64,000 nucleotides of DNA from an uncultured Spirochaetota bacterium (GCA_963734545.1 CAVTHO010000004.1:64001-128000), one strand, 5' to 3'; numbered from the stretch's first letter, positions 6,335-26,553 are shown. Translations and numbers: made by a program. Notes: generated from the letters alone by a model not told the origin.

Positions 6335-6407
6335 TCCCCTGTAGCTCAGTCGGTAGAGCGGGTGACTGTTAATCACTAGGTCGGCGGTTCGAGTCCGTCC
6401 GGGGGAG
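6335..6407 (+). tRNA. tRNA-Asn (GTT)
   Basis: Cloverleaf with acceptor stem TCCCCTG/CGGGGGA, D arm GCTC/GAGC, anticodon loop CTGTTAA, T loop TTCGAGT. CCA not encoded. Confidence 0.97.
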
Positions 6408-6418
6408 CAGAACTGGAC

Positions 6419-6448
6419 AGGCAGCTTCAACAGAGGCTGCCTTTTTTT
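6419..6448 (+). terminator. Intrinsic terminator after tRNA-Asn
   Basis: AGGCAGC-10 nt-GCTGCCT, then a T-tract. Confidence 0.8.
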
Positions 6449-6525
6449 CCCCCCGGAGGGTGTCGAAAACGGCAGGGCTCCGCACCACCTTCCGCCTAAC
6501 CCCCAAGAGTAGTACTATTTGTCCT

Positions 6526-6756
6526 ATGGGCACAACTTCGATTGTTTCCGACCCCGACATCATGATGGGAAAGCCAGTGGTCGCGGGCACCAGGATCACA
6601 GTTGAGTATATTTTGGAGGAACTTGCCCACGGGCAACCGATCGACACCCTCGTGGGCTCTCACCCAACCTTAACGCGCGAGGGTGTACTGGCTGCTCTGG
6701 GGTACGCTGCCAAGGTCCTGCGGCTCGACGTCGTAGACCCTGTAGAAACTCCTTAA
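6526..6756 (+). CDS. DUF433 family antitoxin
   Basis: IVSDPDIMMGKPVVAGTRITVEYIL...HPTLTREGVLAALGYA. Confidence 0.9.
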   Translation: MGTTSIVSDPDIMMGKPVVAGTRITVEYILEELAHGQPIDTLVGSHPTLTREGVLAALGYAAKVLRLDVVDPVETP

Positions 6757-6757
6757 C

Positions 6758-7120
6758 GTGGACCTCGCCTTCCTGGCTGACGAGAACGTTGAGATGGACA
6801 TCGTTGATCGACTCAAGTCACTGGGCCACAGCACGGTACACGCGTCTGAGCTATCCGCCGGTCGTCCCGACACCGCGGTGCTCCAAGCTGCATCTCAGGC
6901 CGGGCAGGTTCTCATTACCAACGACAAGGACTTCGGAGAGCTCGTCTTCCGAAAGCATCATAGCTCCTCCGGAGTCATCCTCGTTCGGTTGCCCGGTCGA
7001 CCTCCCGCCACCAAGGCTCGACTCGTTGCACAGGCTATCCAGCGCTACGGCGAAGAGCTTCTGGGTGCGTTCGTGGTGATTGGACCTCGGACGATTCGGT
7101 TGAGGCGATTGCCGGACTGA
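6758..7120 (+). CDS. DUF5615 PIN-like toxin
   Basis: FLADENV...LITNDKDFGEL...GVILVR; adjacent to DUF433. Confidence 0.88.
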   Translation: MDLAFLADENVEMDIVDRLKSLGHSTVHASELSAGRPDTAVLQAASQAGQVLITNDKDFGELVFRKHHSSSGVILVRLPGRPPATKARLVAQAIQRYGEELLGAFVVIGPRTIRLRRLPD

Positions 7121-7145
7121 GACAGGAGCCCGGAATGGCACGGAC

Positions 7146-7231
7146 TCCTCGATCAGTTGCGGGCGGGACGGTGTTAACCTCCCGGTCGCTGGTTCGAGTC
7201 CGTCCGGGGGAGCGACGGCAGAGTCGAACGG
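7146..7231 (+). repeat. att-like junction J2: degenerate copy of the tRNA-Asn 3' half
   Basis: 7191-7213 is identical to tRNA 6386-6408 (23 bp, GGTTCGAGTCCGTCCGGGGGAGC). It is preceded by an anticodon relic, GTGTTAAC. Confidence 0.9.
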
Positions 7232-7279
7232 CGTATGGTTTGCTTAACACCAAGCGATGCGCCGTTTCCGTTTTCGGGA

Positions 7280-7468
7280 TTACCCAATCTCCGGTATCGA
7301 CAGGGAGCGGCAGATTTTGCGCGCAAGCTGATTGGCAACCTCGGTGTGTCTGGGAATGGCTTCCGTGGCTCCCGTCCGTGGATTCACCCAAAGCGAATGA
7401 GAACGACCCTCACGTTTGAGGACACAGCCGTGATAGCGGAGGTGTCTCAGGAAGGCCGTCCTCTTCAC
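7280..7468 (-). CDS. hicA: HicA toxin
   Basis: MKRTAFLRHLRYHGCVLKREGRSHSLW...IPRHTE. Confidence 0.88.
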   Translation of the reverse strand: MKRTAFLRHLRYHGCVLKREGRSHSLWVNPRTGATEAIPRHTEVANQLARKICRSLSIPEIG

Positions 7469-7695
7469 GAGAGACTGACTACGTCCTGAACAGCGTCAGC
7501 GGGCAGACCGCGCTGAGCGTCCTCCCGCCTGTCTTTCAGGATGAGTGCAATCGCATCGGCGAGATTCTTTTTGCATTCCTCGACTGTCTCACCCTGGCCA
7601 TTCGCCCCGGGGATCTCAGGACAATAGCCGATGTACCACTTCCCGTCACGTTCGATGATTGCGGTGAACTCGTTGTGGAGTGTGTGCTTCGACAT
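7465..7695 (-). CDS. hicB: HicB antitoxin (short form)
   Basis: FTAIIERDGKWYIGYCPEIPGANGQGETVEEC. Confidence 0.88.
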   Translation of the reverse strand: MSKHTLHNEFTAIIERDGKWYIGYCPEIPGANGQGETVEECKKNLADAIALILKDRREDAQRGLPADAVQDVVSLS

Positions 7696-7764
7696 GCACC
7701 TATCGTACCGCGAGCACGTTCTACGGACAAGAGGTGAAATGAAGGACAGCAACAGCACGGCCTT

Positions 7765-7940
7765 TCAAACGGCCAGGAGAGTGGGCACTTCCTCGATCTT
7801 ATGCTCGTCGCAATAGGTTCGAAGCTCGTCCAATAGAGGGAGCCTAACTGGACAGGCAGTCGGCAGGTCGCTGGCTGCCTTTTTTGTGTTCTGGGCCTCG
7901 CGGTGGATGATGTCAAAGGGCGGCGTGAAGGCTGGGACTA
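7765..7940 (-). pseudogene. C-terminal relic resembling a large serine recombinase, spanning junction J3
   Basis: PAFTPPFDII...KKAASDLPTACPVRLPLLDELRTYCDEHKIEEVPTLLAV*. The last 79 bp repeat at 15201-15279. The DNA has the dyad GTCCAATAG-AGGGAGC-CTAACTGGAC. Confidence 0.6.
7854..7886 (+). terminator. Terminator-like hairpin related to the post-tRNA terminator
   Basis: AACTGGACAGGCAG...GGCTGCCTTTTTT, as at 6411-6448. Confidence 0.6.
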
Positions 7941-8108
7941 TGTGGTCAATTTGGTGCCTGGCAGACTGGCTCTCACAATACGGAAATAAATAGAGCGAAG
8001 GTATCTTTCCACCATGCTGTCGATCGCTAACTTCCATGTACGGCGCCGGAATGCGGGTATAGGATTCGTCCCATACCCGCGTGCGGGAAGATTGCAGAGG
8101 AGGATCCC

Positions 8109-9365
8109 ATGAGGAGAAACTTGGTCATAGCGTTAGCGGCGCTCATCGCGGCTGCCGCCTTCACACAGACCGCGACGGCACAGGTGACCCTTTCTATCAT
8201 CGCCAACCAGGATTGGGTCACCAAGCCCTATATGAAGGCAGCCTGGGCGAACTACGAGAAGGTCACCGGCAACAAGCTCGACATCCAGGCACTGCCGATC
8301 GACAACTGGGAGACAGTCATGAAGACCCGCGCTGCGGCGGGCGAGCTGCCCGATATTGTGATGACGTTCGCCGGGCCGGTCCTTGACGCGATGCGTCCCG
8401 CCGACAACTTCATCGACCTCTCCAATGAGCCTTTCGTGAAGGACCTGAAGCCCTTTGTCCTTCCCCAAGCCACCTACAAGGGCAAGATCTACGGCCTGCC
8501 GCTTTGGGAGGGTTCAGTCTCCGGCACCCTCTACAACAAGGACATTTTCAAGAAGCTCAACATATCCGTTCCGAAGACCCAAGCCGAGTTCTGGGCCGCC
8601 TGCGAGACAATCAAAAAAGCCGGCATCACGCCGATCTATCTTGCGTTCAAGGACATCTGGCCGGCCCTTCCCCAGTTCGGTCTGGACCCGATCGCCAGGA
8701 AGTATCCCGGCTTTGTGGACAAGCTCAACTCCAACAAGCTCAAATTCGCCGATGTGCCCGAGTTCACGAACCTCGTTGGCTTTTACAAGACCCTCGTCGA
8801 CAAGGATTATCTGGGCGCTGATTTCGTGAGCAACACCTGGGACGGGCAGGCCAAGGCCCTCGGCGAAGGCACCTATGCCATGGCCCTTGCCTGGGACCAG
8901 TACCTCTATTCAGACCTCGAACCCCGGTACGCCGACGCCGCGGCCCACTTCGGCATCATGCCCTTCTTCATGAACGTGACCCCCGAGGGCTCGTACGAAG
9001 GCCCCAACGCATGCATGAGCTTCGTCAACAAGAAAAGCAAGAACGCCAAGGAAGCCCTCGCGTTCATCCGTTTCCTGGCTCGGCCCGAGAATCTCAACCT
9101 CGCCTACAAGGACGTCTTTACCGAAAGCTACTTCAAGAGCGTGACGACCAACAAGGTCTCGCCCCAGGTAGCCGAAGCAAGGGCCTCCGTGGACAGGCTC
9201 ATCCTGGCTTCGGTGCAGGCGGGGATCGTGGGTTACAGCCAGGTGGAAAGCGTGAAGCCCATCCAGATGATGATGCTGGGCCAGCCCGGAGTGGCGGACA
9301 CGGTCAAGCAGATCGACGAGATCAGGATCAAGGTCGCTAAGGCACGGGGACTTGCGGGATTCTGA
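8109..9365 (+). CDS. Carbohydrate ABC transporter substrate-binding protein
   Basis: Signal peptide, ELPDI, GKIYGLP, YNKDIFKKL, CETIKKAGITP. Confidence 0.9.
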   Translation: MRRNLVIALAALIAAAAFTQTATAQVTLSIIANQDWVTKPYMKAAWANYEKVTGNKLDIQALPIDNWETVMKTRAAAGELPDIVMTFAGPVLDAMRPADNFIDLSNEPFVKDLKPFVLPQATYKGKIYGLPLWEGSVSGTLYNKDIFKKLNISVPKTQAEFWAACETIKKAGITPIYLAFKDIWPALPQFGLDPIARKYPGFVDKLNSNKLKFADVPEFTNLVGFYKTLVDKDYLGADFVSNTWDGQAKALGEGTYAMALAWDQYLYSDLEPRYADAAAHFGIMPFFMNVTPEGSYEGPNACMSFVNKKSKNAKEALAFIRFLARPENLNLAYKDVFTESYFKSVTTNKVSPQVAEARASVDRLILASVQAGIVGYSQVESVKPIQMMMLGQPGVADTVKQIDEIRIKVAKARGLAGF

Positions 9366-9389
9366 ACCAGCTTTTGCGGAATAACGCGA

Positions 9390-9432
9390 GGCCGGGGCCT
9401 GCCGATAGCAGAGCCCCGGCCTTTTCGTTTTC
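9390..9432 (+). terminator. Hairpin/terminator after the substrate-binding gene
   Basis: GCCGGGGC...GCCCCGGC, then CTTTTCGTTTT. Confidence 0.55.
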
Positions 9433-9536
9433 CGGCTTTGACGTTTCGGCAGTGATATCCGCGAGGTATCTTTTTTCCATCCCAGCGGTCGAAAAGCTCC
9501 ATTCACCGCACCTGGACTCGGCTTTAGGATGACGAC

Positions 9537-10421
9537 GTGAAGCAGGGCAACCTCGCAACCGTCAAAAAGGCCTATCCCCTCTGGATGACCATCCTGCCCT
9601 TTGGCATCTACGTGGTGTTCCTGGTCCTGCCGTCGACGGCGGGCTTCACGCTCGCGTTCACGAACTGGAGCCCATATACAGAGACCCTCCGATTCACTGG
9701 CTTCGGGAGCTTCGCAGCGATGTTCACCGAGAAGGTCTATGGCGTGGCACTGGCCAACACACTCATCTTCGCGGTGGTCACGACCTTCGGCAAGGCCGGG
9801 CTCGGGCTTGTTCTCGCCCTTGCGCTCAACACCGCGATCCGCTCACGCAACCTGCTCCGCACGGTCTACTTCTATCCGTCGGTACTCTCGCCTCTGGTGG
9901 TCGGCCTCCTTTTCTCGGCGGTCTTCGATGCCAGGGCGGGGCTCGCGAACCAGCTCGCCGCGGGCCTCGGCCATCCCGCCGTCTCATGGCTGGGTGGACG
10001 AACGACAGCCCTCTTCGTCTTCAACTTCGGTGAAATCTGGCGGTCGACCGGCTACGCCATGGCAATCTTCCTCGCGGCCCTGAAGGGCATCCCTGCCGAA
10101 TACCACGAAGCAGGCATGATCGACGGCGCCTCAGCGTGGAGGCGCTTCCGGAGCATCACCTTGCCCTTCCTGATGCCGGCCATCAATCTCGTGCTCCTCA
10201 CGAGCATGCTGTTCGGGCTCAAGATCTTCGACCTGGTTTACATCCTTACCGGGGGCGGTCCGGGCTACCAGACCGAGACAATCTCGACGCTCATCCTGAA
10301 CCAATACGGTCAGGACCTGTACGCGCAATCGACCGCAACCAACCTCGTTTTCACTCTTGTCCTGGTGTCCTTTGCACTTGCGTTCCAGGCCTACCGCCGA
10401 AAGACGGAGGTCGAGGCGTGA
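9537..10421 (+). CDS. Carbohydrate ABC permease
   Basis: Hydrophobic segments; EAGMIDGAS (EAA loop); LTGGGPG. Confidence 0.92.
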   Translation: MKQGNLATVKKAYPLWMTILPFGIYVVFLVLPSTAGFTLAFTNWSPYTETLRFTGFGSFAAMFTEKVYGVALANTLIFAVVTTFGKAGLGLVLALALNTAIRSRNLLRTVYFYPSVLSPLVVGLLFSAVFDARAGLANQLAAGLGHPAVSWLGGRTTALFVFNFGEIWRSTGYAMAIFLAALKGIPAEYHEAGMIDGASAWRRFRSITLPFLMPAINLVLLTSMLFGLKIFDLVYILTGGGPGYQTETISTLILNQYGQDLYAQSTATNLVFTLVLVSFALAFQAYRRKTEVEA

Positions 10422-11254
10422 CCGCGGAGAACAAGGCCGAAGCCAGACTCAGAAGGTTGATCGGAGCTGCCCTCCTCTGGCTGTGCGCGGTCGTCATCCT
10501 CCTCCCTCTCGCCGTTGTCGTTGTGACTTCCCTCAAGAGTCTCAAAGAGGCAGCCTCGCTCAACCTTTCCTTGCCACGAGTACCGCTCTTCGGCAATTAC
10601 GTCACGGTCTTCGCCGAAGGCAAGATCATCCGTGGCATTGTGAACAGCCTTGTCGTGACGGGCACTGCCACGATCCTCATACTCCTCTCTGCTTCGGTGC
10701 TTGGCTTCATCCTGACACGCCGTCGAACGTCAACGACAGTCTTCATGGAAAGGTGCATCACCCTTGGATTGGTGGCGCCCTTCACCGCCCTGCCGACTAT
10801 CATGCTGCTCAAGACCCTCGGTATCCTCGGCACCCGCGGCGCCCTGGCCCTCGTCTACACAGCGATGTTCCTGCCCTTCACCACGATGATGCTCTCTGCC
10901 TTTGTGAAAACCCTGCCACGCGAGCTGGACGAGGCAGCAATCATCGATGGCTGCTCGGGCCCGGCGCTTTTCCGCAGGATCATCCTGCCCCTTCTCACGG
11001 CACCGCTCATGACGTCCTTTCTCCTCAACACAATGTGGGTATGGAACGACTTCATGATCCCCCTCTACCTCCTCAATTCCTCCGCGAGTTGGACTCTTCC
11101 CCTTTCGGTGTTCAGCTTCTTCGGCAAGTACAATCATTCATGGCACCTCATCTGCGCCAATATGGCCATTGTCTCCGCCCCGGTGACCCTGCTCTACCTC
11201 ATCGGGCAGCGCTCGATCATCTCGGGAATGACCGCCGGCGCCGTGAAGGGCTGA
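10418..11254 (+). CDS. Carbohydrate ABC permease
   Basis: ELDEAAIIDGC, WNDF, C-terminal GMTAGAVKG. Confidence 0.92.
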   Translation: MTAENKAEARLRRLIGAALLWLCAVVILLPLAVVVVTSLKSLKEAASLNLSLPRVPLFGNYVTVFAEGKIIRGIVNSLVVTGTATILILLSASVLGFILTRRRTSTTVFMERCITLGLVAPFTALPTIMLLKTLGILGTRGALALVYTAMFLPFTTMMLSAFVKTLPRELDEAAIIDGCSGPALFRRIILPLLTAPLMTSFLLNTMWVWNDFMIPLYLLNSSASWTLPLSVFSFFGKYNHSWHLICANMAIVSAPVTLLYLIGQRSIISGMTAGAVKG

Positions 11255-11273
11255 AGGTGGTACAATAGGCGCG

Positions 11274-13040
11274 ATGCTTGCCAAGCGGTTCACGAATCGG
11301 CTGCTGCTCGCCAACCTCGGGATCCTTCTCGCGCTCCTGGTCTGCGGGGGCCTGGGCCTGTCTTTTGTCCTCGGCGGCTTTCTTCGCGCTGACTTCCGGA
11401 CCCAGCAGGGATATCGCGTCGACAAGATGGCGGAACAGCTTGACAGCGTCCTGGACGAGATGAATCGCCTGTCGATATCCATCCTCGCCTCCCGCCGGAT
11501 CAGTGACATCATGCTCGGCATACCGCGGGACGACAGGAACAATTACTTCCTGATCCATCCTGCCACCCGGTACGAGGTCCTCAACCTGCTCCTGTCCTAC
11601 ACCGCCCTCAAGCCGCTCAAAGGCCGTATCTGCCTGGTCTCGGACAAGGGCGACCTCCTGGACCTTTCGAACCAGCAGGACGCGATGGCCTTCACCAAGC
11701 CTGAGCTCTCGCACATCACGGTCACGAGGGAGGCGGTGCTGGGTGACGAGCCCAAGGCCTTCCTGCCGCCGGGACCTGAACCCTGGTCCCGCCGGCATGC
11801 GGCGGTCATCGCCCTGGTCCGGCGTCTGCAGGATGCGGAACAACGATATGGCTGGCTGGAGATCAACGAGCAGGTCGAGTCCCTCAAATGGATATGGGAG
11901 TCGCGCGGCAACGCTACGCCCGCGCGGGTCGGCCTTTACGATATGGCTGGAACCCTGCTCTACGCCAACTTCAACGGAGCGCCGAGCACCGCCGCGGAGC
12001 TTTCGAACGGGCGGCGCCTGCCTTCCGGAGGAGCGATGGTTTTCATGGCCGAACTCGCCAACGCCGACTGGAGGCTCGCATATTTCGCCGACTCCAAGGG
12101 CCACGAGCTGCTCACGGGCCAGACCATGGGAATCCTCGCCGCGATCCTGCTGGCCTCCTTTGTCCTGATGGCGCTCTTTTCCTGGCTGGCTCTCACGCGC
12201 GTCACGAGGCCGGTACGAAAGCTCACCGACGAGGTTCGGGGCATCACGAGCCTGAACCAGGATTTCAGACCGCCCGACCTGCGCGCGCCGGAGGAGGTCG
12301 CGATCCTGACCCGCGCCTTCCAGGACCTCATCGTCTCTCTCCGGAGGGAGCACGAGGCCCGGCTCCGTCTCCAGGGACAGGAGATGAGCGCGAGGATGGC
12401 GGCCCTGCAGGCCCAGCTCAATCCGCACTTCGTGTTCAACACCCTGACCTGCATCGCGGCCTACGGGAAGAAGCGCGATGGCGCGACCGTGCAGCGGATG
12501 TGCAAGGATCTCACCGCCATGCTCCGTTATTCCCTTCAGAACTCGAATGAGTCGGCGACCATCGACCAGGAACTCGACCAGGCAGAGGGCTATCTCGCTC
12601 TCATGAGCAAGCGCTACGCGCAGTACCTCGAGTATCGGGTCGGTCGGTTCCCGGAGGCGTCCCGGATTCCCGTCCCGCGCCTGCTTCTTCAGCCCGTCAT
12701 CGAGAACTGCTTCGTACATGGCTTCGCCGATACCCCCGGACCCTGGCAGGTCGAAGTCTGCTCCGGCCTGCAAGGGGACAATTGGGAAGTGTCAGTGAAG
12801 GATTCCGGCGGGGGAATGGACGCCGACCGTGTACGGCGCCTTCTTGCCGAGTTTGAGGCGGCGCTGGCCGAGGAATCACCGAGCGTCTTCGACCGCGACT
12901 TCTCGCGCGGCAAGCTCGGCCTCCTCAGCACTTTCGCGCGCCTTCGTGCGCTCTACGGGGAACGGGCGGCTTTCTCTTTGGAAAGCACCGAGGGAACGGG
13001 CCTCCTCGTACGCATCGGGGGGCCGCATGGCCTTGCTTGA
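11274..13040 (+). CDS. YesM/LytS-type sensor histidine kinase
   Basis: ALQAQLNPHFVFNTL, LLQPVIENCFVHG, DSGGGM; two TM segments plus HAMP. Confidence 0.9.
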   Translation: MLAKRFTNRLLLANLGILLALLVCGGLGLSFVLGGFLRADFRTQQGYRVDKMAEQLDSVLDEMNRLSISILASRRISDIMLGIPRDDRNNYFLIHPATRYEVLNLLLSYTALKPLKGRICLVSDKGDLLDLSNQQDAMAFTKPELSHITVTREAVLGDEPKAFLPPGPEPWSRRHAAVIALVRRLQDAEQRYGWLEINEQVESLKWIWESRGNATPARVGLYDMAGTLLYANFNGAPSTAAELSNGRRLPSGGAMVFMAELANADWRLAYFADSKGHELLTGQTMGILAAILLASFVLMALFSWLALTRVTRPVRKLTDEVRGITSLNQDFRPPDLRAPEEVAILTRAFQDLIVSLRREHEARLRLQGQEMSARMAALQAQLNPHFVFNTLTCIAAYGKKRDGATVQRMCKDLTAMLRYSLQNSNESATIDQELDQAEGYLALMSKRYAQYLEYRVGRFPEASRIPVPRLLLQPVIENCFVHGFADTPGPWQVEVCSGLQGDNWEVSVKDSGGGMDADRVRRLLAEFEAALAEESPSVFDRDFSRGKLGLLSTFARLRALYGERAAFSLESTEGTGLLVRIGGPHGLA

Positions 13041-13770
13041 GGTCTTCATCGCCGAGGACGAGCCTCCCATCGCCGAAATGATCGCGTCCATGGTGGACGA
13101 GTCGCCTTCCGGTTTCCGAACTGCTTTCGTCGCGCACGACGGCAGGAGCATGCTGGACCGGCTTGCAGCCAATAGACCGGATCTCCTCCTCGCTGACATC
13201 AGGATGCCGGTCATGGGCGGCCTCGAGCTCATCGAGGCCGCGAGGCGGCTCCATCCCGACCTGCCCTGCGTCATAATCACGAGCCATTCCGATTTCGAGT
13301 ACGCCCGCGCAGCCATCAGGGCGGGGGCCATGGACTACATCCTGAAAACCTGCCTGCCCGAGAGCCTCGACGAGGTGCTTCTTCGCGTGCGGCAATCACT
13401 CGGGCTCGAAGCGCTTGCAGACCACGTGCCGGACGCGCGCCTGGACACGGGGGCGCGGCTCAAGAAGCATCTGGACCAGATCGTCCGCAGTCCCTTTGAT
13501 CTCCGGGATGTCGCGGAAGCCTGGGGCTATAATTCCCTGTATTTATCCCGGGCTTTCAAAGCCCTTGTCGGCATCTCCCCTAAGCGCTACCACACGAAGG
13601 CCAAGATCGATCTCGTTATCACAATGATGAAGAAGGATCGTCGGCTCCTCCTCAAGGAGGCCGCCTCCGTTATTCATTTCGATGACGAGCTCTACCTGGC
13701 GAAGGTGTTCAGAAAAGAGACCGGCATGAGCTTTTCTGAATTCAGGCGGAAACTGGATGATGGGGGGTGA
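13027..13770 (+). CDS. YesN-type response regulator (REC + AraC)
   Basis: IAEDE, DIRMPVMGGLEL, YLAKVFRKETGMSFSEFR. Confidence 0.9.
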   Translation: MALLEVFIAEDEPPIAEMIASMVDESPSGFRTAFVAHDGRSMLDRLAANRPDLLLADIRMPVMGGLELIEAARRLHPDLPCVIITSHSDFEYARAAIRAGAMDYILKTCLPESLDEVLLRVRQSLGLEALADHVPDARLDTGARLKKHLDQIVRSPFDLRDVAEAWGYNSLYLSRAFKALVGISPKRYHTKAKIDLVITMMKKDRRLLLKEAASVIHFDDELYLAKVFRKETGMSFSEFRRKLDDGG

Positions 13771-15100
13771 TCCAGTGCCAGAGGGCCGCGGGGCACGAAC
13801 CGAATGGTTCATGAGGTCACGGTTCGGAATGTTCATCCATTGGGGACTGTATGCGATCCCGGCCAAGGGCGAATGGATCCGCAGCCAGGCACGGATGACC
13901 GAGGAGTCGTACCGCGAGTATTTCGACTCTTTCGATCCCGTGGACTGCGACCCGCGGGTATGGGCTCGCCTTGCGAAGAAAGCAGGGATGAAATACGCGG
14001 TTTTCACGGCGAAGCACCACGACGGGTTTTGCCTCTTCGAAAGCGCCTTCACTGATTACAAATCGACCGTCACGAAGGCTGGCCGCGACTTCGTCGCTGA
14101 ATATGTCGAAGCCTTCCGCGCCGAGGATCTTGAAGTCGGACTCTATTACTCGCTGATTGACTGGCACCACCCCGATTATCCGCACTGGGGAGATCGCCAT
14201 CATCCCCAGCGCGATGACGCTGCGTTTCAGGGCCACCACCACGACTTCGGCCGCTACCTCGACTATCTCCACGGCCAGGTCAAGGAATTATGCAGCAACT
14301 ATGGGAAACTCTCGATCCTCTGGTTCGATTTCTCCTATGACGCGCTCACAGGTGAGGCATGGCATGCCACCGACCTCGTGCGGATGGTTCGCTCCCTCCA
14401 GCCCTCGGTGATCATCGACAACCGCCTCGAGGCCTCCGGTGAGACTCTCGGTTCGATCGTAGGAGGCGAGCCAGGGGAGTACGCGGGCGACTTCGCCTCT
14501 CCCGAGCAGATCATTCCACCCGAAGGCGTGCGGGACGCGCGGGGACGCCCGCTTCCCTGGGAGGCCTGCGTCACGATGAACAACCATTGGGGCTACGCGG
14601 CTGCCGACCACGCCTGGAAGCCGCCACGCCAGCTCCTGCGCAAGCTCGTTGAATGCGTCTCCAAGGGCGGAAACCTCATCCTTAACATCGGGCCGGACGC
14701 CCGTGGCGCAATCCCGCCCGAATCCACGCGCAGCCTCGAGCACATCGGCTCCTGGCTCGCCGCAAATGGGGCGAGCATCTACGGATGCGGCGCGAGCGGC
14801 TTTCCCAAGCCCGAGTGGGGATACTTCACGAAAAATGGCCAGAAGCTCTTCGCCCACGTCTTTGAGCCGCCCATCGGATCCCTTGCCCTCCCCGGTCTTG
14901 GCGGCGGAAGGATTGCGCGCATGCGCCTGCTCAAAGACGGATCTGAGCTCCGTGAAAACGACGCCTGGAACACGAAGATCTTTGCGAATAACGCCTTCGT
15001 GAACTTCGCCGAACCGGCCGATTTCACCTTCCCTCTCCCCGATGAAGACGACACCGTCATCGAAATCGAGCTGCGAGAGCTGACGCTGCCGCATGAGTGA
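13757..15100 (+). CDS. Alpha-L-fucosidase (GH29)
   Basis: RFGMFIHWGLY, TAKHHDGFCLF, LWFD, SKGGNLILNIGP. Confidence 0.93.
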   Translation: MMGGDPVPEGRGARTEWFMRSRFGMFIHWGLYAIPAKGEWIRSQARMTEESYREYFDSFDPVDCDPRVWARLAKKAGMKYAVFTAKHHDGFCLFESAFTDYKSTVTKAGRDFVAEYVEAFRAEDLEVGLYYSLIDWHHPDYPHWGDRHHPQRDDAAFQGHHHDFGRYLDYLHGQVKELCSNYGKLSILWFDFSYDALTGEAWHATDLVRMVRSLQPSVIIDNRLEASGETLGSIVGGEPGEYAGDFASPEQIIPPEGVRDARGRPLPWEACVTMNNHWGYAAADHAWKPPRQLLRKLVECVSKGGNLILNIGPDARGAIPPESTRSLEHIGSWLAANGASIYGCGASGFPKPEWGYFTKNGQKLFAHVFEPPIGSLALPGLGGGRIARMRLLKDGSELRENDAWNTKIFANNAFVNFAEPADFTFPLPDEDDTVIEIELRELTLPHE

Positions 15101-15200
15101 AAATGTTGGTGCCAGAAGAGCCTTTCAGACAACGCCGCGATTGCTCTTGAACGTCAGCCCAGTTGATTTGGGGGACACGGGACCGGCTCGAACAGGCTTC

Positions 15201-15297
15201 TCAAACAGCCAACAAAGCAGGTGTCTCCTCGATCTTGTGCTCGTAGCAGTAGGTTCGAAGCTCGTCCAATAGGGGAAGCGACGGTTGAGTCGAACGG
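15201..15297. repeat. att-like junction J4
   Basis: 15201-15279 matches 7765-7843 at 64/79 by hand count. The right flank GACGG..GAGTCGAACGG matches J2's right flank. Confidence 0.85.
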
Positions 15298-15348: not shown

Positions 15349-15546
15349 CTACTTCCGTTCAATCGCCAACACGAGCTGCTTGACGATCTTGGGGTGCAGG
15401 TCTTTCCTCGAATGGAAAGGAATGACAAACCTTTTCTGGTCCCGCATGTAGATCCTGTGGCTCCCCTTCGCGCGAACAAACGCGAAGCCATGTTGAAGCA
15501 ATAGGCGCTCCGCCTCGTCCGCCGTCAGACGCGGAAGCCTAGGCAA
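15349..15546 (-). CDS. hicA: HicA toxin
   Basis: MPRLPRLTADEAERLLLQHGF...KGSHRIY...IPFH. Confidence 0.88.
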   Translation of the reverse strand: MPRLPRLTADEAERLLLQHGFAFVRAKGSHRIYMRDQKRFVIPFHSRKDLHPKIVKQLVLAIERK

Positions 15547-16804: not shown

Positions 16805-16805
16805 G

Positions 16806-18176
16806 TCAGGGTCCTTCCGTCTCTTCGACGGAACGGAGATACGCGGCCATGTCGAACTTCCTTTTCAAGCCTGAGTCGTTCATGTACCGCACGTTTCCGA
16901 AAATCGGCTTCCTGCCCCACGGCCTGTCGTGCAGCCCGAAGCACCATGCCACCCCGGCGAAAGAGCAGGGGTCCCGGCCGTCGAGGAACCAGCGGTTGTT
17001 CAGTCGGAGCGCTTCGTGGAAGCCGTCCTGCGGGCTGGGGCTCCATTCCAGGATCTTCTTGCCCCAGTACATCCTCATGTACCCGTGCAGCCGGCCCGTG
17101 CGCTTCATCCGGTTCATGGCTGCGTTCCAGAACGGGTCGTGCGTTGCCGCACCCTCCAGCTGCGAGGGCGTGTACAGGAACGGCCGCGGATCGCCGGCGT
17201 GAGCGCCCAGGGTCTCGCGCGCCCACACGGGCAGACAGGACCACTGGTCATAGTCAGTGGAGTGCTCGACGAAGTTCACGGCAAGTTCACGCCGGACGAT
17301 GAGCTGTTCCAGGAACGCGGCGCGGGCGCCTTCCGACGCGTGACGCGCGCGGGCCACGGTGAGCGCGATTCTTACCGGTGAGATCTGGCCGAAGTGGAGG
17401 TACGGGCTCAGCCCCGACTGCGTGCCCAGATTGGGGTCATGTCTCTCGCTGCCGTAGTAGGGAAGCTTCTTCGAGACGAACGAGCGCAGGAGGGAGAGTG
17501 CTTCACGCGTTCCTCCGGTGCCGCCCAGGGACGGGGCGACAGCCGGAACGCTCCTGTCCACCCGCAGGTCGACGAGAAGGCCCGAATCCAGCGAGCGCAC
17601 GGCGTGGGCCACGGAAATGCCCAGGGAGTCCTTCTTCGGGCGCGGAGAACGGTGGACGCGCAGGCAGGTCTCTAACTGCCGATGAATCCTGGGGCGAAGA
17701 GTCGCGGCTGACCATTCCCGCTTCGCGGAGGCGCTGTCCACGGGCACCACGACGTCGCCTTCCACCTCGAGCACCCGGCAGGTGCTGCGCTCCGCGACCG
17801 CGCGACGCCACTCCTTCTGGTGACGAAGGTAGCCGCGGTCGCACACCACGAGAGCCGCTGCGCGTGACGCGGAGAGGGCCGCTTCGGGCGGCGTCCCCGG
17901 GACGACCGCGAGCTGCACGCCGCGCTCCTCCAGCGATTCCCTGGTCTCCCGAAGGCCTTCCAGCATGAACGCGAAATGTCTCAGGTTGGCTTCGGGATAT
18001 GAGACGTCCAGGCCCAGGACGCAGAGCACCGGCAGGGAGAGTTCGTTTGCCTGCTCCACGGCGACATCCAGCGCGGGGTTGTCCTCGGCTCTCTGGGAGG
18101 CCTGCATCCAGTACAGCACGTACCGTCCCCGGCCTACCGCGGCATTGTTGAGGGCCCGTGTTCGCTCTTCGTGCAT
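16806..18176 (-). CDS. phrB: Deoxyribodipyrimidine photolyase (class II-like CPD)
   Basis: YVLYWMQASQRAEDNPAL, SGLSPYLHFGQIS, THDPFWNAA, HGYMRMYWGKKILEW, LDGRDP. Confidence 0.93.
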   Translation of the reverse strand: MHEERTRALNNAAVGRGRYVLYWMQASQRAEDNPALDVAVEQANELSLPVLCVLGLDVSYPEANLRHFAFMLEGLRETRESLEERGVQLAVVPGTPPEAALSASRAAALVVCDRGYLRHQKEWRRAVAERSTCRVLEVEGDVVVPVDSASAKREWSAATLRPRIHRQLETCLRVHRSPRPKKDSLGISVAHAVRSLDSGLLVDLRVDRSVPAVAPSLGGTGGTREALSLLRSFVSKKLPYYGSERHDPNLGTQSGLSPYLHFGQISPVRIALTVARARHASEGARAAFLEQLIVRRELAVNFVEHSTDYDQWSCLPVWARETLGAHAGDPRPFLYTPSQLEGAATHDPFWNAAMNRMKRTGRLHGYMRMYWGKKILEWSPSPQDGFHEALRLNNRWFLDGRDPCSFAGVAWCFGLHDRPWGRKPIFGNVRYMNDSGLKRKFDMAAYLRSVEETEGP

Positions 18177-20811: not shown

Positions 20812-22143
20812 TCAGAACACCCGCGTCAGCGCGTCCACGGGCCTGATTTTTCCCCCGTGCCGGGCAGGGAAGAAAGAGAACAGCGCCGAGAAGGCGGCGA
20901 TCAACAGCACGATGCCCGCGATGTCTCCCACCCGCGGGATGAGCACCACGTGGCCTTTGTCCAGGAAGAGCGCCACGGCCCCCGTTGCCGGCAGCGGCAC
21001 CAGCGTAACAAGGATGCCCGCCACCGCGAGGGCAGCGGCCACGCCGATGAGGCTGAACAGAAGCGCGAGCAGGACATTCTCGATCATGAAAAGCGAGGTG
21101 ATCCCGGCCGAACCCACGCCGATGGTGCGCATCGTGCCGATCTCCCGCAGCCGCTCGTTGATGGTCATGCGGAGGTTGATGAAGATGGACACGGCGATGA
21201 TGAACAGCATGATGAGCGCGACGACGGCGCCGACGGCGTTCACCGCGGAGGAGATGATTTTCACGATGCTGACCGCCTCGTCGATGGTTGAGAGGGTGAG
21301 CCGGTTGGAGTCCGCCCCGGAGGCGTCCACCTTGTACGTCGGGGAGGCGGAGGTGACTGCGTCGATGGCCGCCGAGGCATCTGCGGGCTTGTTCACCTCG
21401 AAGCCGCGCCGCGCCAGCTCCGCCGAGAGCTGGCTGCGCTTCTGGTTCATTCCCGCGGGGTCAGGGAAGTACAGGTACAGCGTCGAAGAGGTGTCCTTCT
21501 CCCCCAGGTCGAGCTCCCGCGAGAAGGGCAGTGGACAGAGGACGAGACCCTGGGCGAAGAAGTTCACCGATTCGTAGATCGCCTTTACCTGCAGCGTGCC
21601 GGTGTTGAACGCTCCGAACCGCGTACGAGCCGCCACCACGATCTCGTCGTCCAGGGAGAGGCTGAAGTATTCCGCGACATCCTTCGGCAGGATCACGCCG
21701 TTGGAGGCGGAGGCGAAATCGTCCCAGCCGCCCTTCACGAAGCTCAGCTGTCCCTTCAAGGCGGAGTCCAGCGTGGTGTCGATGCCCGTGAAATCGATGC
21801 GTTTGGAACTGCCCTTGTAGTACAGCGCGGAGCGCACCACGTAGCGCGGGATGATCTTTACCTCCCCGCCGAAGACCTGCCGGACCGCCGCGGCGATCTC
21901 GGGAGTGCGCCGCACACCGAGAAACACACGGCCCGAAGCCGTGTACGAGCCGGAGATGGTGATGTGGCCCGCGGTGGACCGCACCAGGTTCGTGGTGATG
22001 TTCCTGATCGCCCCCTGGGAGAAGGAGAACAACAGCACGAGGATGAAGGTGACCACCGCGTAGTTGATGCCGAGGGTGAACGACCGCCTTTTCTGGCGGA
22101 AGACGTTTTTCAGGGCGACGGAGAAATAGAACCACACGGCCAT
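20812..22143 (-). CDS. FtsX/LolE-like ABC permease
   Basis: ALKNVFRQKRRSF, NERLREIGTMRTIG, PVDAL. Confidence 0.88.
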   Translation of the reverse strand: MAVWFYFSVALKNVFRQKRRSFTLGINYAVVTFILVLLFSFSQGAIRNITTNLVRSTAGHITISGSYTASGRVFLGVRRTPEIAAAVRQVFGGEVKIIPRYVVRSALYYKGSSKRIDFTGIDTTLDSALKGQLSFVKGGWDDFASASNGVILPKDVAEYFSLSLDDEIVVAARTRFGAFNTGTLQVKAIYESVNFFAQGLVLCPLPFSRELDLGEKDTSSTLYLYFPDPAGMNQKRSQLSAELARRGFEVNKPADASAAIDAVTSASPTYKVDASGADSNRLTLSTIDEAVSIVKIISSAVNAVGAVVALIMLFIIAVSIFINLRMTINERLREIGTMRTIGVGSAGITSLFMIENVLLALLFSLIGVAAALAVAGILVTLVPLPATGAVALFLDKGHVVLIPRVGDIAGIVLLIAAFSALFSFFPARHGGKIRPVDALTRVF

Positions 22144-22147
22144 GCTC

Positions 22148-23536
22148 CTATCGATCGTTCATCGCCGCCAGGGGAGTGATGCGCGTGGCAAGGCGTATGG
22201 GGAGGATCGTGGCGATCACCGAAACGGCCGCCACCACGACGAAAGCGGTCACGAACGGGCCCGGGCTCAGCACCAGGAGAAGGGATCCGCCGCCAATGAG
22301 ATACTGCGAAATCGAGTCCGGCAGCGGCAGGCCGGAGCGGGTGCCCATCACGAGCGCCAGTCCGACCGCCATGCCGACAAGGCAGGCGGCGAGGTTCAGG
22401 ATAAGTGTCTCGGCGAGAAAGATCCGCCGAATGAAGCTCTTTTCGCTCCCCAGCGCCCGCATTGTACCGATCTCCCCCGTGCGCTCGATGATGCTGATGA
22501 TGAGAGTGTTCATGAAGATGAAAGCCACGACCAGGAAGACCAGGCCCGTGGCGAACCAGATGAAGGCCTGCAGGGCAGAGGCGACCCGCGCGAAGAATCC
22601 CGAAGCCTCGTCCCAGGGCGACGTCTTCACGTCGAGGCCCTGCGCGGCGAGCCGTGCGCGGAGCGCGGGCGCCGTGGCGTCGTCCTTCAGCAGAACGGCG
22701 ACCATCGTGTAACCCGAGATTGATTCCGACTTCAGCTTCGAGGTGTCGATCGCGGCACCTGCGGGCCCCGCCAGCGCGAAGATGTCGTCCTCGCTCTGCT
22801 GCGCGGCGGCCAGCCCCTTTTCCAGCGCCTCGGGCAGCGATCCGCGGGCCACCCCCGTGAAGTTGTACACCTGCGAGTAGGAGGCCATGTCCATGAAGTT
22901 GATGTAGTTGAACACGTTCTTGTAATAGAGAGGCTCGAAGATCCCCCGTACCTTGGTAGGGAACGCGTTCACGCCCCCTCCGGCACTCAGCCCCAGGACC
23001 GTGACGTCCTGGCCCACGGCAAGACGCACGCCGTAGCGTTTTTCATAGTGGTCGTTCTGGTACTGGCTGATGAGGATCCCGCCGCCGCTGGTGAGGAAAT
23101 CGCCCTGCACCATCTTCACGTTGGTGAAGGCCTTCGCATACTCCACGGGCGGCACGGCGTAGAAGATGAACGGCACGTCCACCTTCGACCCTTTCAGGTC
23201 CAGTGAAAGCAGAGAGTAGTTCTGGGCGTAGGGAACGACGGTCCGCACCTCTGGCTGCGCCGACAGGTATGCCGTCAGCTTGTCCAGGTTCGGCACGACA
23301 GGCAGGGGTGTGTTGAAAGCGAACGGGGAGGGAATCTCCCGCGACTTTGCGGCGTAGACAATGAAGTCTCCCGTAAAGTTGCGGATGATCGAGTTCCGCG
23401 AGGCGATGCCCGCGGAGCGCGTGAGCGTGGTGCCGTACACCAGCAGGATTGTCCCGAAGGCCACGAGCACGGCGATGAGCGCCATGCGGCTCTTGCGGCG
23501 GGCCAGGGACCGGAGCGCGATCTTCACGGTGATCAT
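22148..23536 (-). CDS. FtsX/LolE-like ABC permease
   Basis: IALRSLARRKSR, ERTGEIGTMRALG, ITPLAAM. Confidence 0.88.
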   Translation of the reverse strand: MITVKIALRSLARRKSRMALIAVLVAFGTILLVYGTTLTRSAGIASRNSIIRNFTGDFIVYAAKSREIPSPFAFNTPLPVVPNLDKLTAYLSAQPEVRTVVPYAQNYSLLSLDLKGSKVDVPFIFYAVPPVEYAKAFTNVKMVQGDFLTSGGGILISQYQNDHYEKRYGVRLAVGQDVTVLGLSAGGGVNAFPTKVRGIFEPLYYKNVFNYINFMDMASYSQVYNFTGVARGSLPEALEKGLAAAQQSEDDIFALAGPAGAAIDTSKLKSESISGYTMVAVLLKDDATAPALRARLAAQGLDVKTSPWDEASGFFARVASALQAFIWFATGLVFLVVAFIFMNTLIISIIERTGEIGTMRALGSEKSFIRRIFLAETLILNLAACLVGMAVGLALVMGTRSGLPLPDSISQYLIGGGSLLLVLSPGPFVTAFVVVAAVSVIATILPIRLATRITPLAAMNDR

Positions 23537-23540
23537 CTCA

Positions 23541-24230
23541 CTACCCCCGGGACTCGACATCAGTGACCAGCCCGTCGCGGAGGTTCACCACCCGGCGGGC
23601 GTGCTCCATGATGTGAAGGTCGTGCGTTGAGAATATCAGGGTCGTCTTTTCCACCGCGTTGATCGTCTTCATCAGCTCGATGATCCTGTGCCCGGTGGCG
23701 CTGTCGAGGTTCGCCGTCGGCTCGTCGGCGAGGATGATGAGGGGGTTTGTCACGAGCGCCCGGGCTATTGCCACGCGCTGCCGCTGGCCTCCGGAGAGCT
23801 CGTTGGGCTTGTTCTTCAGCCTGTCGGAGAGCTCGACCTCTTCCACGAATCGCGTGACGATCTTCTCTCTCTCCTTGCGGGAGAGGTTCCGCCTGAGCAG
23901 GAGAGGGAATTCGATGTTTTCGTAGACATTCAGCACCGGAATCAGGTTGAAGGACTGGAAGATGAACCCGATCTTGTTGCGGCGGTAGCGCGTAAGCTCG
24001 GTGTCGCTGAGGTGTTCCACCTCGGTGCCGTCGATCAGCACCAGCCCGTCCGACGGGTTGTCGATGCAGCCGATCATGTTGAGGATCGTGCTCTTGCCCG
24101 AGCCCGATGGGCCCGCAATTGCCACGAACTCACCCTTCTCGATCTTCAGGGACACCCCGCGAAGGGCGTCCACCCGGGTGTCTCCCAGCATGTAGTGCTT
24201 CTTGACATCGACGATTTCCACAACGCTCAT
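23541..24230 (-). CDS. LolD/MacB-type ABC ATPase
   Basis: [32 protein letters not shown]. Confidence 0.93.
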
Positions 24231-24245
24231 TTCATAACCAACCTT

Positions 24246-24288
24246 ATCACGATATGTGTTATTATACACAAAATGTGATTGCCTTCAA
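24246..24288 (-). promoter_or_regulatory. sigma70 promoter flanked by CAC-N5-GTG palindromes
   Basis: TTGAAG(24288-83)-16-TATAAT(24266-61). CACGATATGTG at 24248 and CACAAAATGTG at 24267. Confidence 0.65.
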
Positions 24289-24308
24289 GTCGCTTCCGCA
24301 GGCTCCTG

Positions 24309-25220
24309 TCATTGCCGAACGAGCTTGTTCGCCGTCATGACCGCAGATTCCGCGTTGCGGCCGGTCCCGTCGGCTCCGATCTCTTCCCACAGGTCGCGCC
24401 TGGAGTGGAAGGCCTGACCTCCGGCGATCACACGGGTCGCCCTGAGGAAGTCCTTCTCCCTGACGGCGGCGATGAGATCCGCGGCCTCGACGACATTGCT
24501 CGCGGAAGTGACAGAAATGGCCAGGAGGTTCACGGGTCGTGCTGCAAGCACCTCCAGGAGGTGCCTGATCCCCAGGTTCCCGCCAAGGAATTGTACGCTC
24601 CAGCCATCGAGCCTCAGGAAATCCGAGACCATGCGCGGACCGATCAGGTGCGGCTCGCTGGAAACCGCCAGGACGCAGCAGGCAGCCTCGCCGGTTGGTT
24701 CGCGAGGCGCCCCCTCCAGCGAATAGACCCGGGACATGATGCGTTCGGTGGCCTGGCTGATCACGTGCTCTTCGCCCACGGAGAGCTCTCCGTGAGCCCA
24801 CAAACGGCCGACTTCCTTCAGCGCGGGCTCGAGGACCTCGAGGTACGTCCTTCGTATTCCCAGCGCGCCGCGGGAAAGACTCTCAACGAGCTGCGCTGCC
24901 CCATCGTTGTCGCCTTGGCGAACCAGGCCGAGGTACCGCGCGGCATCGCTTGACGCGGAAAGCGGCGGCTCCGGTATCTCTTCGTTTCGCGACGCCCAAT
25001 CCTGCGTCTTGCGCTTCACGTTGCTGCGCCCCATCAGGTAATCCAGCGATACGTCGAAGTACTCGGCAAGCCTGCCCAGCATCGACTCGTCGGGAAATCG
25101 CAGCTTGTTCTCGTAGTTCGCAATCGTGGTCTGGGCGGTGCCGAAGGCGTCAGCCAGGTCCTGCTGCCGGAGTCGCCGCTCTTTCCGCAACTCTCTCAGG
25201 CGCGTCGCGAAGTCAGACAT
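24309..25220 (-). CDS. XRE-HTH plus cobalamin-binding transcriptional regulator (CarH-like sensor module)
   Basis: RLRELRKERRLRQQDLA...IANYEN...FDVSLDYLMGRS (XRE). W-AHGELSVGE-EH (Wx9EH). EPHLIG (ExHxxG), then a Rossmann fold. Confidence 0.85.
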   Translation of the reverse strand: MSDFATRLRELRKERRLRQQDLADAFGTAQTTIANYENKLRFPDESMLGRLAEYFDVSLDYLMGRSNVKRKTQDWASRNEEIPEPPLSASSDAARYLGLVRQGDNDGAAQLVESLSRGALGIRRTYLEVLEPALKEVGRLWAHGELSVGEEHVISQATERIMSRVYSLEGAPREPTGEAACCVLAVSSEPHLIGPRMVSDFLRLDGWSVQFLGGNLGIRHLLEVLAARPVNLLAISVTSASNVVEAADLIAAVREKDFLRATRVIAGGQAFHSRRDLWEEIGADGTGRNAESAVMTANKLVRQ

Positions 25221-25419
25221 AATTCACCACGAATCGTATTCGCACTCCAAAATGATAGCACATCTCGTGCATTCCGGGCAATACGAAAAACTGCGGCCCC
25301 TCAGCCAGAGAGACCGTTTCTCTCGAACAGGTGTCTGACGGGCGCGTTCGCGTGCATATTTCCGCCGGGCACTCCCCGCGGCGTCCCACCGGCGGGGTCC
25401 CGCGGAGCCCTTGTACGGA

Positions 25420-26166
25420 TCAAAAACGGACGGTGATGCCCGCGGTGGCGTAGTGGAACAGCGCGAAGGTATAGACGTTCCCACCCTCACCGCCGGAGCC
25501 TCCTTCGAGCACCCGATACCCCAGGCGCAGGGCGACCGAATCCGAGAGACGACACTGCAGCGCTGCCAGAACGTCCTCCGCCCGGCCGAAGGGAGTGACG
25601 AGCGCATCCGCGTCAAGGAGGAGGCTCCAGGGCTTTGCAAAACTCCACTCCGCCATCAGGCTCACAAGGGGCACGACGCCGAGGTCGCTGCGGTGAGCAT
25701 AGCCGGCACCGCTCATGAGTGCGATGTCTGCGCTCCGCAGCTTGGCTGTGAGCCCTGCCGCAAGAACGAGGGAATCGTTCTTGACGAATGAGTAGCGGTA
25801 GGTCAACCGGAAGGAATCGAAGCGATAGCTCGACTCGAGCTTTGTGCCTGCGGCGAATGATTGCCCTTGAAAGCTCACCGCGTGATCCAGGACGCCGCTG
25901 CCACCGACCGTCAGCGGGGCAACAAGAAGCATTACCGTATGGCGTTCCGCGAAAGTGTAGCCGCCTCGGACTCTGAACGCGAATGCCGGTGCAGAGACGG
26001 TATCGGTGGCAAGGGAAATCCTGGTCCCGGTGTCGCTCGGTATGCGCACGTCATTGTACCCGGTGAATGCCGCGCCTGTTTCAACTTCCAGGAAACCGTC
26101 GGCATAGAGACCGATCGCCCCCAGCAGGAAAACGCAAAGAGATACTGCTCGGACAAATCCATTCAT
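25420..26166 (-). CDS. Putative outer-membrane beta-barrel protein
   Basis: Signal peptide, YNDVRIP..TGTRISL, YRFDSFRLTYRY, terminal F. Confidence 0.65.
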   Translation of the reverse strand: MNGFVRAVSLCVFLLGAIGLYADGFLEVETGAAFTGYNDVRIPSDTGTRISLATDTVSAPAFAFRVRGGYTFAERHTVMLLVAPLTVGGSGVLDHAVSFQGQSFAAGTKLESSYRFDSFRLTYRYSFVKNDSLVLAAGLTAKLRSADIALMSGAGYAHRSDLGVVPLVSLMAEWSFAKPWSLLLDADALVTPFGRAEDVLAALQCRLSDSVALRLGYRVLEGGSGGEGGNVYTFALFHYATAGITVRF

Positions 26167-26489
26167 AGTTGTGCTTCTTCTGTTGGGAGCCTGCCGCCCA
26201 TCAGGATGCGGTGGAGGCTCTAGACCTGTCTTGCTAGCCGCAAGTGGCAAAGAAAGCTTGCCGGCAAATTGAACTTCAATTTGTGCTAATATCATAATAT
26301 TCAACACAATTTGTAATATCAGGACCTCTGCCGCGAAAGTCAAGAACTATCGCAGGCCAGGATGGCGTCCCTGGCAAACATCTTCGACCCGGAGGCCTGA
26401 GTGCTCGTCCTTCCCCTGGCGCCCCCCGGCGCAGAGCGCCTTGAGGAAGTCCTTGTCTCAAACCGAATACCGGCGGCAGCGGGATGACG

Positions 26490-26553
26490 CCCTCAATCAG
26501 AGCCGGGATTGCCGCGCGCGCGTTTGCTTTCGTTTGATCCGGGGGAGCGAAGA
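26490..26553 (+). repeat. att-like junction J6
   Basis: CCGGGGGAGCGAAGA (26539-53) is identical to 16234-48. TCCGGGGGAGC matches the tRNA end. A terminator follows. Confidence 0.65.

Follow-up and report, generated by a model that had tools for sequence, protein, structure and literature searches.

Stacked cassettes at the tRNA-Asn gene of an uncultured Spirochaetota bacterium, a probable accretion array of a tRNA-targeting large serine recombinase

We analysed a 64,000-nucleotide stretch of DNA from an uncultured Spirochaetota bacterium (GCA_963734545.1 CAVTHO010000004.1:64001-128000; hereafter the window), in which a series of cassettes follows the tRNA-Asn gene. We found that the segment 6409-26548 is best read as an accretion array of five cargo cassettes (C1 to C5) and one empty unit, inserted site-specifically at the 3' end of tRNA-Asn by a large serine recombinase (LSR) that targets tRNA genes, and we give this reading a probability of about 0.78. 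Every unit would have entered through site-specific recombination, with the extreme 3' end of the one tRNA-Asn gene as its target. Where an element is intact, its LSR gene lies on the tRNA-proximal side and reads towards the tRNA, with its last codons running through a hairpin in the right flank (type X), the core and the left flank. Upon integration, the last 26 LSR codons (the type B flank) would end up at the tRNA-distal end of the element, and the enzyme would gain a short tail read antisense to the tRNA; the X hairpin would double as the tRNA terminator. In this scheme, only the last 20-30 codons of the LSR gene would be left in C1 and C3, and C2, C4, C5 and the empty unit, which have arms of a second family (Y) and no LSR trace, would have moved with an LSR from elsewhere or ridden with their neighbours.

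The tRNA-Asn(GTT) gene was the sole tRNA in the window, located on the plus strand at 6335-6408 by ARAGORN and at 6335-6407 by Rfam, and it was also the single tRNA-Asn of the 5.1-Mb genome. Its 3' end, from the T arm to GGGGAGC, forms the left half of the attachment site at the first junction (J1). Exact plus-strand copies of GGGGAGC ended at 6408, 7213, 16243 and 26548 (J1, J2, J5 and J6), and variant cores were present at 7837-7843 (AGGGAGC, J3) and 15273-15279 (GGGAAGC, J4). An earlier note on this DNA had proposed six junctions, and the tRNA and the cores were found at all of these positions. The 7-mer alone was not above chance, with 16 matches on both strands compared with 21.5 +/- 4.5 in shuffled sequences, and the signal therefore sits in the flanks and not in the core.

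The left flanks were of three types. In particular, type A resembled the tRNA: at J2, the segment 7163-7213 was 80% identical to tRNA positions 6358-6408 and its last 23 nt matched the tRNA exactly (2 matches in the window, a number reached in 0 of 100 shuffles), and at J5 the segment 16193-16243 was 67% identical to the tRNA end. Type B, found at J3 (7759-7843) and J4 (15195-15279), showed 80% identity between its two copies over 85 nt, and this likeness stopped about 7 nt past the stop codon of B. Relative to the tRNA T arm, B contained a 5-nt insertion; a spacing difference of this type reportedly separates attP from attB half-sites in work on the LI integrase, which we take as a lead only. 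The assignment of types A and B in the earlier note held for these four junctions, and the left flank of J6 was added as a third type, C, with 80% identity over 80 nt to contig C6 of the same genome (C6:334523-334601).

Of the right flanks, type X was common to J1 and J3 (AACTGGACAGGCAG plus a hairpin) and type Y to J2 and J4 (GACGG..GAGTCGAACGG plus a hairpin). The A, B, X and Y repeats described earlier were thus confirmed; a further proposed right-flank type, Z, was not a single type, as the right flank of J5 (Z5) contained a Y-like TCGAACGG and that of J6 (Z6) resembled the sequence directly 3' of tRNA-Asn in relative G017. Each of the six right flanks folded into a stem-loop with a U run behind it (z-scores -2.1 to -7.1). 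A seventh junction is probable between 15176 and 15177 (GGGGGAC followed by ACGGGACCGGCTCGAAC), and it leaves a cargo-free unit of 103 bp at 15177-15279.

As evident from the alignment of the junctions, the ..AGC was kept at the flank-type switch in every case, and the switch always fell inside the few bases ..GGGGAGC, in agreement with the earlier proposal of crossovers at the core. Site-specific exchange is the best reading of this pattern because the stretch is too short for homologous recombination and because the same cassette occurs behind different left partners. We also observed that Y repeated the T arm in inverted orientation (GTTCGAGTC / GAGTCGAAC), with its symmetry centre inside the core and about 2 nt left of the centre of the junction between A and Z5 (A/Z5; left flank/right flank). 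Because the centres of A/Y and A/Z5 differ, this symmetry was rejected as a guide to the crossover position. No junction was found right of 26548 by BLAST with all flank types or by eye at 37466 and 46-47 kb, and none was added there by a rough search of the whole genome for cores with a terminator behind them, which gave 26 matches, eight of them known junctions, and whose own criteria missed two known ones, J3 and K4. BLAST with the flanks over the whole genome revealed four further junctions outside the window: C4:570103 (A/X), C6:318428 (A'/X), C6:334704 (B/Y) and C6:346361 (A'/X).

The only serine recombinase of the genome (a single PF00239 match) was encoded on the minus strand of contig C6, not on the contig of the window, at C6:318159-319973; the gene immediately adjoined the X flank of junction C6:318428 and read towards this junction. 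The copy in relative G006, which was 94% identical and intact, contained the Resolvase, Recombinase and Zn_ribbon_recom domains (PF00239, PF07508 and PF13408, all above cut-off), and the enzyme is accordingly a large serine recombinase by its domains. Comparison with solved structures gave distant matches only, to catalytic domains, and the genes beside the LSR gave no Pfam match. In the intact LSR genes of G006 and G013, one frame ran past ...PPFDIIHRIAQEA and through the X hairpin (..TKKQA....ACPVLLP) and the core (LP) into the left flank. Similarly, X in general encoded ...KKAAS..ACPVLLP, the core LP, and B a conserved tail of 25 residues. The earlier suggestion of a recombinase whose 3' end matches the flanks was therefore borne out for X and B; Y was never found beside an LSR.

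A metagenome protein search with a 61-residue query from the minus strand of 7765-7950 gave five longer proteins. Four of them (P0001-P0004) were C-terminal parts of an LSR that ended in the B tail (...PPFDII.RIA..KKAAS..ACP.(L/R)LPLLDELRT(Y/F)CYEH.(I/V)EE...), and the fifth continued through a tRNA-like flank. Sites of the B motif in the genus amounted to 19 rows, from which 4 short or diverged ones were dropped, leaving 15 copies, 14 of them distinct. Their differences from the consensus at codon positions 1, 2 and 3 numbered 40, 26 and 90, and the codon differences were synonymous in 87 cases and non-synonymous in 44; the copies are mutually related, so that these counts overstate independence, but the third-position excess is nevertheless strong. 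The stop was at the same codon in most copies. Because of the codon-position bias, the common stop and the ends of P0001-P0004, B is best understood as the last 26 codons of the LSR gene. The gene therefore spans its own attachment site, where integration cuts it.

Behind the tRNA or type A, the LSR frame continued for 12 residues after LP and stopped at the anticodon-loop TAA or its GTTAAC mimic. A tblastn search for the full-length B tail elsewhere in the genome found only the three known copies, none of them attached to a gene. In the array itself, relics of the LSR 3' end were present on the minus strand right of J1 (about 6409-6500, ...PAVFDTLRGEKKAASVEAACPVLLP) and right of J3 (about 7886-7960, VPAFTPPFDIIHREAQ), both in frame with the core; the second was also in frame with the B tail of C2, and the minus strand there read VPAFTPPFDIIHREAQNTKKAASDLPTACPVRLP. 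C1 and C3 are for this reason regarded as LSR-deleted elements. The cassettes had been described as carrying only cargo, which was correct in that Pfam found no recombinase gene in any of the 20 open reading frames (ORFs) scanned, and incorrect in that C1 and C3 start with these relics. The cassettes had also been viewed as non-autonomous miniatures; the X-type ones are not purpose-built but are deletion derivatives of once-autonomous LSR elements.

To place the recombinase in its family, we confirmed at least 570 LSR relatives among at least 599 pattern matches and kept the best 80 for context counts, to which all the numbers in this paragraph refer. The closest records were titled Spirochaetia metagenome-assembled genomes. 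A convergent tRNA was located within 400 nt of the match end in 63 of the 80 loci (27 Asn, 28 Gln and 8 other); among the remaining 17, the contig ended within 250 nt in 4, and no such tRNA was present in 13. At the 63 tRNA-adjacent loci, the LSR frame stopped inside the tRNA in 51, only beyond it in 11 and 2 nt before it in one, meaning that there was no stop before the tRNA in 62. A Spirochaetales locus (L029) showed the plain arrangement, with tRNA-Asn followed by X and then the LSR, and members at tRNA-Asn and tRNA-Gln genes occurred in many phyla. The family thus appears to be widespread and convergent with the 3' ends of tRNA-Asn or tRNA-Gln genes, and we infer that this LSR made the junctions of the array.

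We compared the tRNA-Asn locus with those of relatives and found gain, loss and reordering of cassettes, as the earlier note had envisaged. The genes upstream of tRNA-Asn were conserved in 28 of the 31 genomes searched, and many contigs broke at this tRNA, as would be the case if repeated flanks and differences between strains disrupted assembly from short reads. Contigs of G004, G010, G011, G012, G015, G016 and G001 ended about 1 kb or less from the locus (3-1107 nt from the match). In G017, tRNA-Asn was followed directly by about 75 nt like Z6, in the manner of an empty site, which supports the view that 6409-26548 was inserted. Z6 (26549-26625, plus strand), with a terminator hairpin at 26553-26586 and a second hairpin, is likely the original right half of the attachment site, judging from this resemblance; the genes beyond the Z6-like flank in G017 are not the same, however, and Z6 might instead be a further arm.

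In the closest relative, G014 (90%), the tRNA was joined to a further right flank, W, behind which came 4 kb of different cargo; the C3 cargo (at 91% identity) followed, with C/Y''-B at its end, and then W once more. G002 showed tRNA/X, and G018 and G006 showed tRNA/W. Across the genus, B joined X, Y-family and W flanks, and A joined X and Y-family flanks; B or X sequences were present in 13 of 21 genus genomes and the LSR in 5 of 21. In G032 (contig C92), we found five A-type junctions and C1-like and C2-like cassettes in a different order. Contig C257 of G001 contained B/X, A/Y'', B/Y and A/Z within 4 kb, including the same 103-bp empty Y''-B unit as in the window. Contig C98 of G008 showed B/X and then a C1-like toxin-antitoxin pair, so that X with C1 lies behind the tRNA here and behind B in G008. 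Additionally, at G015:C10:792517 (L156, position 4518), the X hairpin of a B/X junction was followed at once by an inverted X, a core and a tRNA-like flank (..GCCTGTCCGATCCTGCTCCCCCGGCCGGACTCGAAC), which is a head-to-head pair of sites.

The LSR DNA of the genome under study (G000) was 92-94% identical to that of G001, G006, G013 and G014. The genes upstream of tRNA-Asn were only 76-79% identical in G001, G006 and G013 and 90% identical in G014, and the contrast in the first three points to a recent spread of the LSR element. Many cassettes, by contrast, are old, because their copies in relatives are 74-82% identical. We also considered the ABC transporter right of J6 as the original right neighbour of the tRNA; its 90-91% orthologues in five relatives adjoin neither a tRNA nor a junction, and it therefore cannot prove the original neighbour. 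Synteny with G002 downstream of its tRNA-Asn resumed only at about window 46.3-47 kb, and the stretch right of J6 (window 26549-47100) may consequently also vary.

Several findings weigh against an accretion array built by this LSR. Compared with the intact copies, the G000 LSR contains three indels (+1, -1, +1) in its last ~65 codons, namely one base gained at ..ILPG, one lost ahead of ..TKK and one gained immediately in front of the core, and these shift the conserved PPFDIIH segment and the tail out of the reading frame. The 465 codons upstream of the indels are open, and the confinement of all three to 200 nt looks like real decay rather than read error. Of the 13 genus genomes that contain B or X, 8 gave no LSR with the query used, and several of these are incomplete. 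Sequencing runs were sought with sampled words (best contained 0.31, none half), and four runs were aligned as contigs, which gave three joints across the array; all belonged to relatives or other tRNA-Asn genes, and these contigs showed neither a circle nor an empty site nor a variant of the strain itself. In particular, the joint from 6360 to 7184 was rejected as an excision product because it was another organism's tRNA-Asn fitted to both tRNA-like copies, and the joints from 7212 to 15216 and from 7214 to 7996 came from 90-95% relatives with other arrangements in one peat run. The C1-like and C2-like cassettes of relatives were only 74-82% identical, and the C3 cargo with its C/Y''-B end was shared with G014 as a block, which indicates that many junctions are old. 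Finally, Y, W and Z flanks were never beside an LSR gene in the arrays and relatives examined.

A rival account is that the array is only a decayed residue of successive autonomous islands, in which nothing moved in trans and the mixed flanks arose through deletions and homologous exchange. The visibly LSR-deleted C1 and C3, the damaged resident LSR, cassette copies as diverged from those of relatives as the core genes are, and the lack of any sign of present mobility in the joints from the run contigs are all in line with it. We nevertheless consider this account possible but doubtful, as both arms are complete in C2 (630 bp), C4 (964 bp) and the 103-bp unit, none of which contains a relic of the LSR, the flanks switch in every combination within the same few bases, which are too few for homologous recombination, and X-C1 is found behind the tRNA in one genome and B in another. 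Under the preferred reading of site-specific accretion, the array now appears largely frozen in this genome because its single LSR copy is damaged.

The isolation of Y, W and Z flanks from any LSR gene or relic would be explained if two systems shared the site, the X/B elements using the LSR and the Y, W and Z cassettes being moved by another recombinase, for example a tyrosine integrase, at the tRNA-Asn 3' end. The offset centre of the inverted T-arm copy in Y is consistent with this, and the likeness of type A flanks to the tRNA starts at the anticodon loop and continues from there, which is said to be the classical extent of tyrosine-integrase attachment sites. However, the A and B left flanks, of which B is LSR coding sequence, close Y-type and X-type cassettes alike, and the mixed junctions B/Y, A/X, B/X and A/Y need one exchange point common to all. 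Tyrosine recombinases were abundant in the genus (18-50 matches per genome in 5 genomes), and one was located 3.6 kb from an A fragment on contig C85 of G032. On the other hand, PF00589 had no match in the window, on array contigs G032:C92, G001:C257 and G008:C98, or near the arrays of G009:C14 and G015:C10, and the six tyrosine recombinases of the genome under study (its six PF00589 matches) were all elsewhere, none near the arrays. We regard two systems as quite unlikely and infer that the Y-type cassettes used the LSR in trans, with the Y, W and Z arms as substrates.

A more speculative extension, which we hold to be rather unlikely, is that the LSR senses its own state, since its gene spans the attachment site and each recombination would swap its C-terminal tail. 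Behind B, on a circle or in an array, the enzyme would have the conserved 25-residue tail under purifying selection, and behind the tRNA or A it would have the 12-residue tail. The tail would set the direction of the reaction, and A and B would be kept on LSR-less cassettes to supply a tail to an incoming LSR. If true, the array would amount to a system for exchanging cassettes whose effect resembles that of an integron.

The closest known system appears to be the ssrA islands of Dehalococcoides. As described in passages of PMC3146451, these are tandem islands that follow a tDNA present in one copy and have repeats of the tDNA 3' end at their borders; the LSR gene DsiB lies on the reverse strand beside attL, with a frame that overlaps attL and stops in the tDNA or the neighbouring island, and its C-termini are described as divergent. 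The same passages propose that islands without an integration module are cis-mobilizable elements. They also raise the possibility that a full-length enzyme is encoded only by the circle, or where an adjoining island provides the missing 3' fragment. To go by these passages, the two systems share tandem units at a tDNA 3' end, a reverse-strand LSR by attL with its frame entering the tDNA, and module-less units. They differ in the target, which is tRNA-Asn here and ssrA (tmRNA) there; the tmRNA gene of our genome is on contig C7. The Dehalococcoides islands have a six-gene integration module with DsiA, whereas the single PF00239 match here leaves no second small serine recombinase, and the cassettes here are as small as 630 bp and 103 bp. 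Unlike in DsiB, the tail from the left flank seems to be conserved here as coding sequence; the two recombinases are likened by domains and layout.

The tycheposons of Prochlorococcus are a second comparison: passages of bioRxiv 10.1101/2020.12.28.424599 describe neighbouring elements at tRNA genes with partial tRNAs between them and degenerated remnants, and state that 27 of 937 tycheposons have an LSR, most using tyrosine recombinases and many carrying replication genes. Our array has partial tRNAs between stacked units and no integrase in the window. Unlike the tycheposons so described, it has no replication or packaging module in its cassettes (Pfam, 20 ORFs scanned). Att-flanked units without recombination genes are also stacked beside autonomous elements in the cis-mobilizable elements of streptococcal integrative and conjugative elements and in CcrAB arrays of staphylococcal cassette chromosomes, the latter with a serine recombinase that tolerates several site pairs; those systems have other recombinase clades, other targets and much larger units. 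The cassettes described here, flanked by attachment sites and without recombination or transfer genes, have the trait of such elements. In the myxophage Mx8, the attachment site lies inside the integrase gene (intP/attP) and integration changes the C-terminus of the enzyme, but this enzyme, Mx8 Int, belongs to the tyrosine recombinases and exchanges a far larger part.

The comparison to an integron made in the earlier note was not upheld for the parts of the array. A true integron-like platform would pair a recombinase fixed in the chromosome with an attachment site at which promoterless cassettes are captured and expressed, and stacked short cassettes, toxin-antitoxin cargo and exchange at a short common core do recall one. 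However, we found no IntI, attI, attC or common promoter and no recombinase adjoining the array; a terminator follows every junction, genes occur on both strands and cassettes in both orientations, and the serine enzyme, where present, itself travels on a cassette. We therefore consider this explanation highly improbable.

The Islander paper of 2014 states that serine integrases were not known to target tRNA genes, and the passages of a 2025 TIGER/Islander note that bear on serine integrases contain no tRNA-specific statement. Our literature search found no description of an LSR family at tRNA-Asn. New here are a broad clade with tRNA-Asn or tRNA-Gln as its target, the toxin-antitoxin and empty cassettes of very small size and, as far as the sequences indicate, the conservation of the left flank as an alternative C-terminus of the enzyme. 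These results document a widespread LSR family that targets tRNA 3' ends, together with a natural collection of attachment half-sites in numerous combinations and a testable case of an integrase whose C-terminus may be rewritten by its own reaction. They also show how genomic islands gather tiny toxin-antitoxin cassettes, and serine integrases with defined, conserved natural targets are of interest for genome engineering.

The individual cassettes were as follows. C1 (6409-7213, plus, 805 bp) begins with an X flank with a terminator hairpin at 6419-6442, carries a DUF433 gene (6523-6756) and a DUF5615/PIN-like gene (6758-7120), and ends in type A at J2. C2 (7214-7843, minus) begins with a Y flank with a hairpin, carries HicA (7280-7468) and HicB (7465-7698) on the minus strand, and ends in type B at J3, which on the minus strand reads LPLLDELRTYCDEHKIEEVPTLLAV and then a stop. 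C3 (7844-15176, plus, 7.3 kb) begins with an X flank with a hairpin at 7854-7880 and contains a sugar-binding protein (8109-9365), two permeases (about 9537-11254), a histidine kinase (11274-13040), an AraC-type response regulator (to 13770) and an alpha-L-fucosidase (13757-15100). In the 103-bp unit (minus), a Y-like arm ACGGGACCGGCTCGAACAGG is directly joined to type B, whose minus-strand tail is LPLLDELRTYCYEHKIEETPALLAV followed by a stop, and the unit ends at J4.

C4 (15280-16243, minus) begins with a Y flank with a hairpin, carries HicA (15349-15546), a HicB-like gene (15550-15798) and a truncated DUF433 ORF (15780-16100), and ends in type A at J5. This DUF433 ORF matched profile positions 1-23 of 56 only and its partner toxin is missing, which looks like a decayed toxin-antitoxin pair. 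C5 (16244-26548, minus, 10.3 kb) begins with a Y-family flank, GAAGAGG..ACTCGAACGG plus a hairpin, and ends in type C (26469-26548) at J6. Its cargo includes a photolyase-like gene (16806-18176), two FtsX permeases (20812-23560), an ABC ATPase (23541-24269), an HTH/B12-binding regulator (24309-25220) and several unknown genes.

We also observed a second array in this genome at C6:318225-346375 (L021, L022), which holds the only LSR and has an inner C/Y''-B/Y junction at 334601-334704. A 219-nt repeat, 91% identical between its copies, was present at both ends. The cargo of this array includes a 998-aa protein that fuses SWI2/SNF2, type I R-like and peptidase S24 parts, and several proteins without a Pfam match; contig C6 has no tRNA, and a molybdopterin oxidoreductase gene abuts the left junction of the array. 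At C4:570103 (L024), a solitary tRNA-like/X junction was found with no tRNA gene nearby, and a HicAB-like stretch about 2.5 kb beyond it was 89% identical to window 15478-15557. A further HicAB copy at C6:380157-380508 was 90% identical to the C2 copy (window 7380-7731). Within a coding region at window 38491-39119, we found a short GC-rich repeat family with a 9-nt period (D1), which is unrelated to the array.

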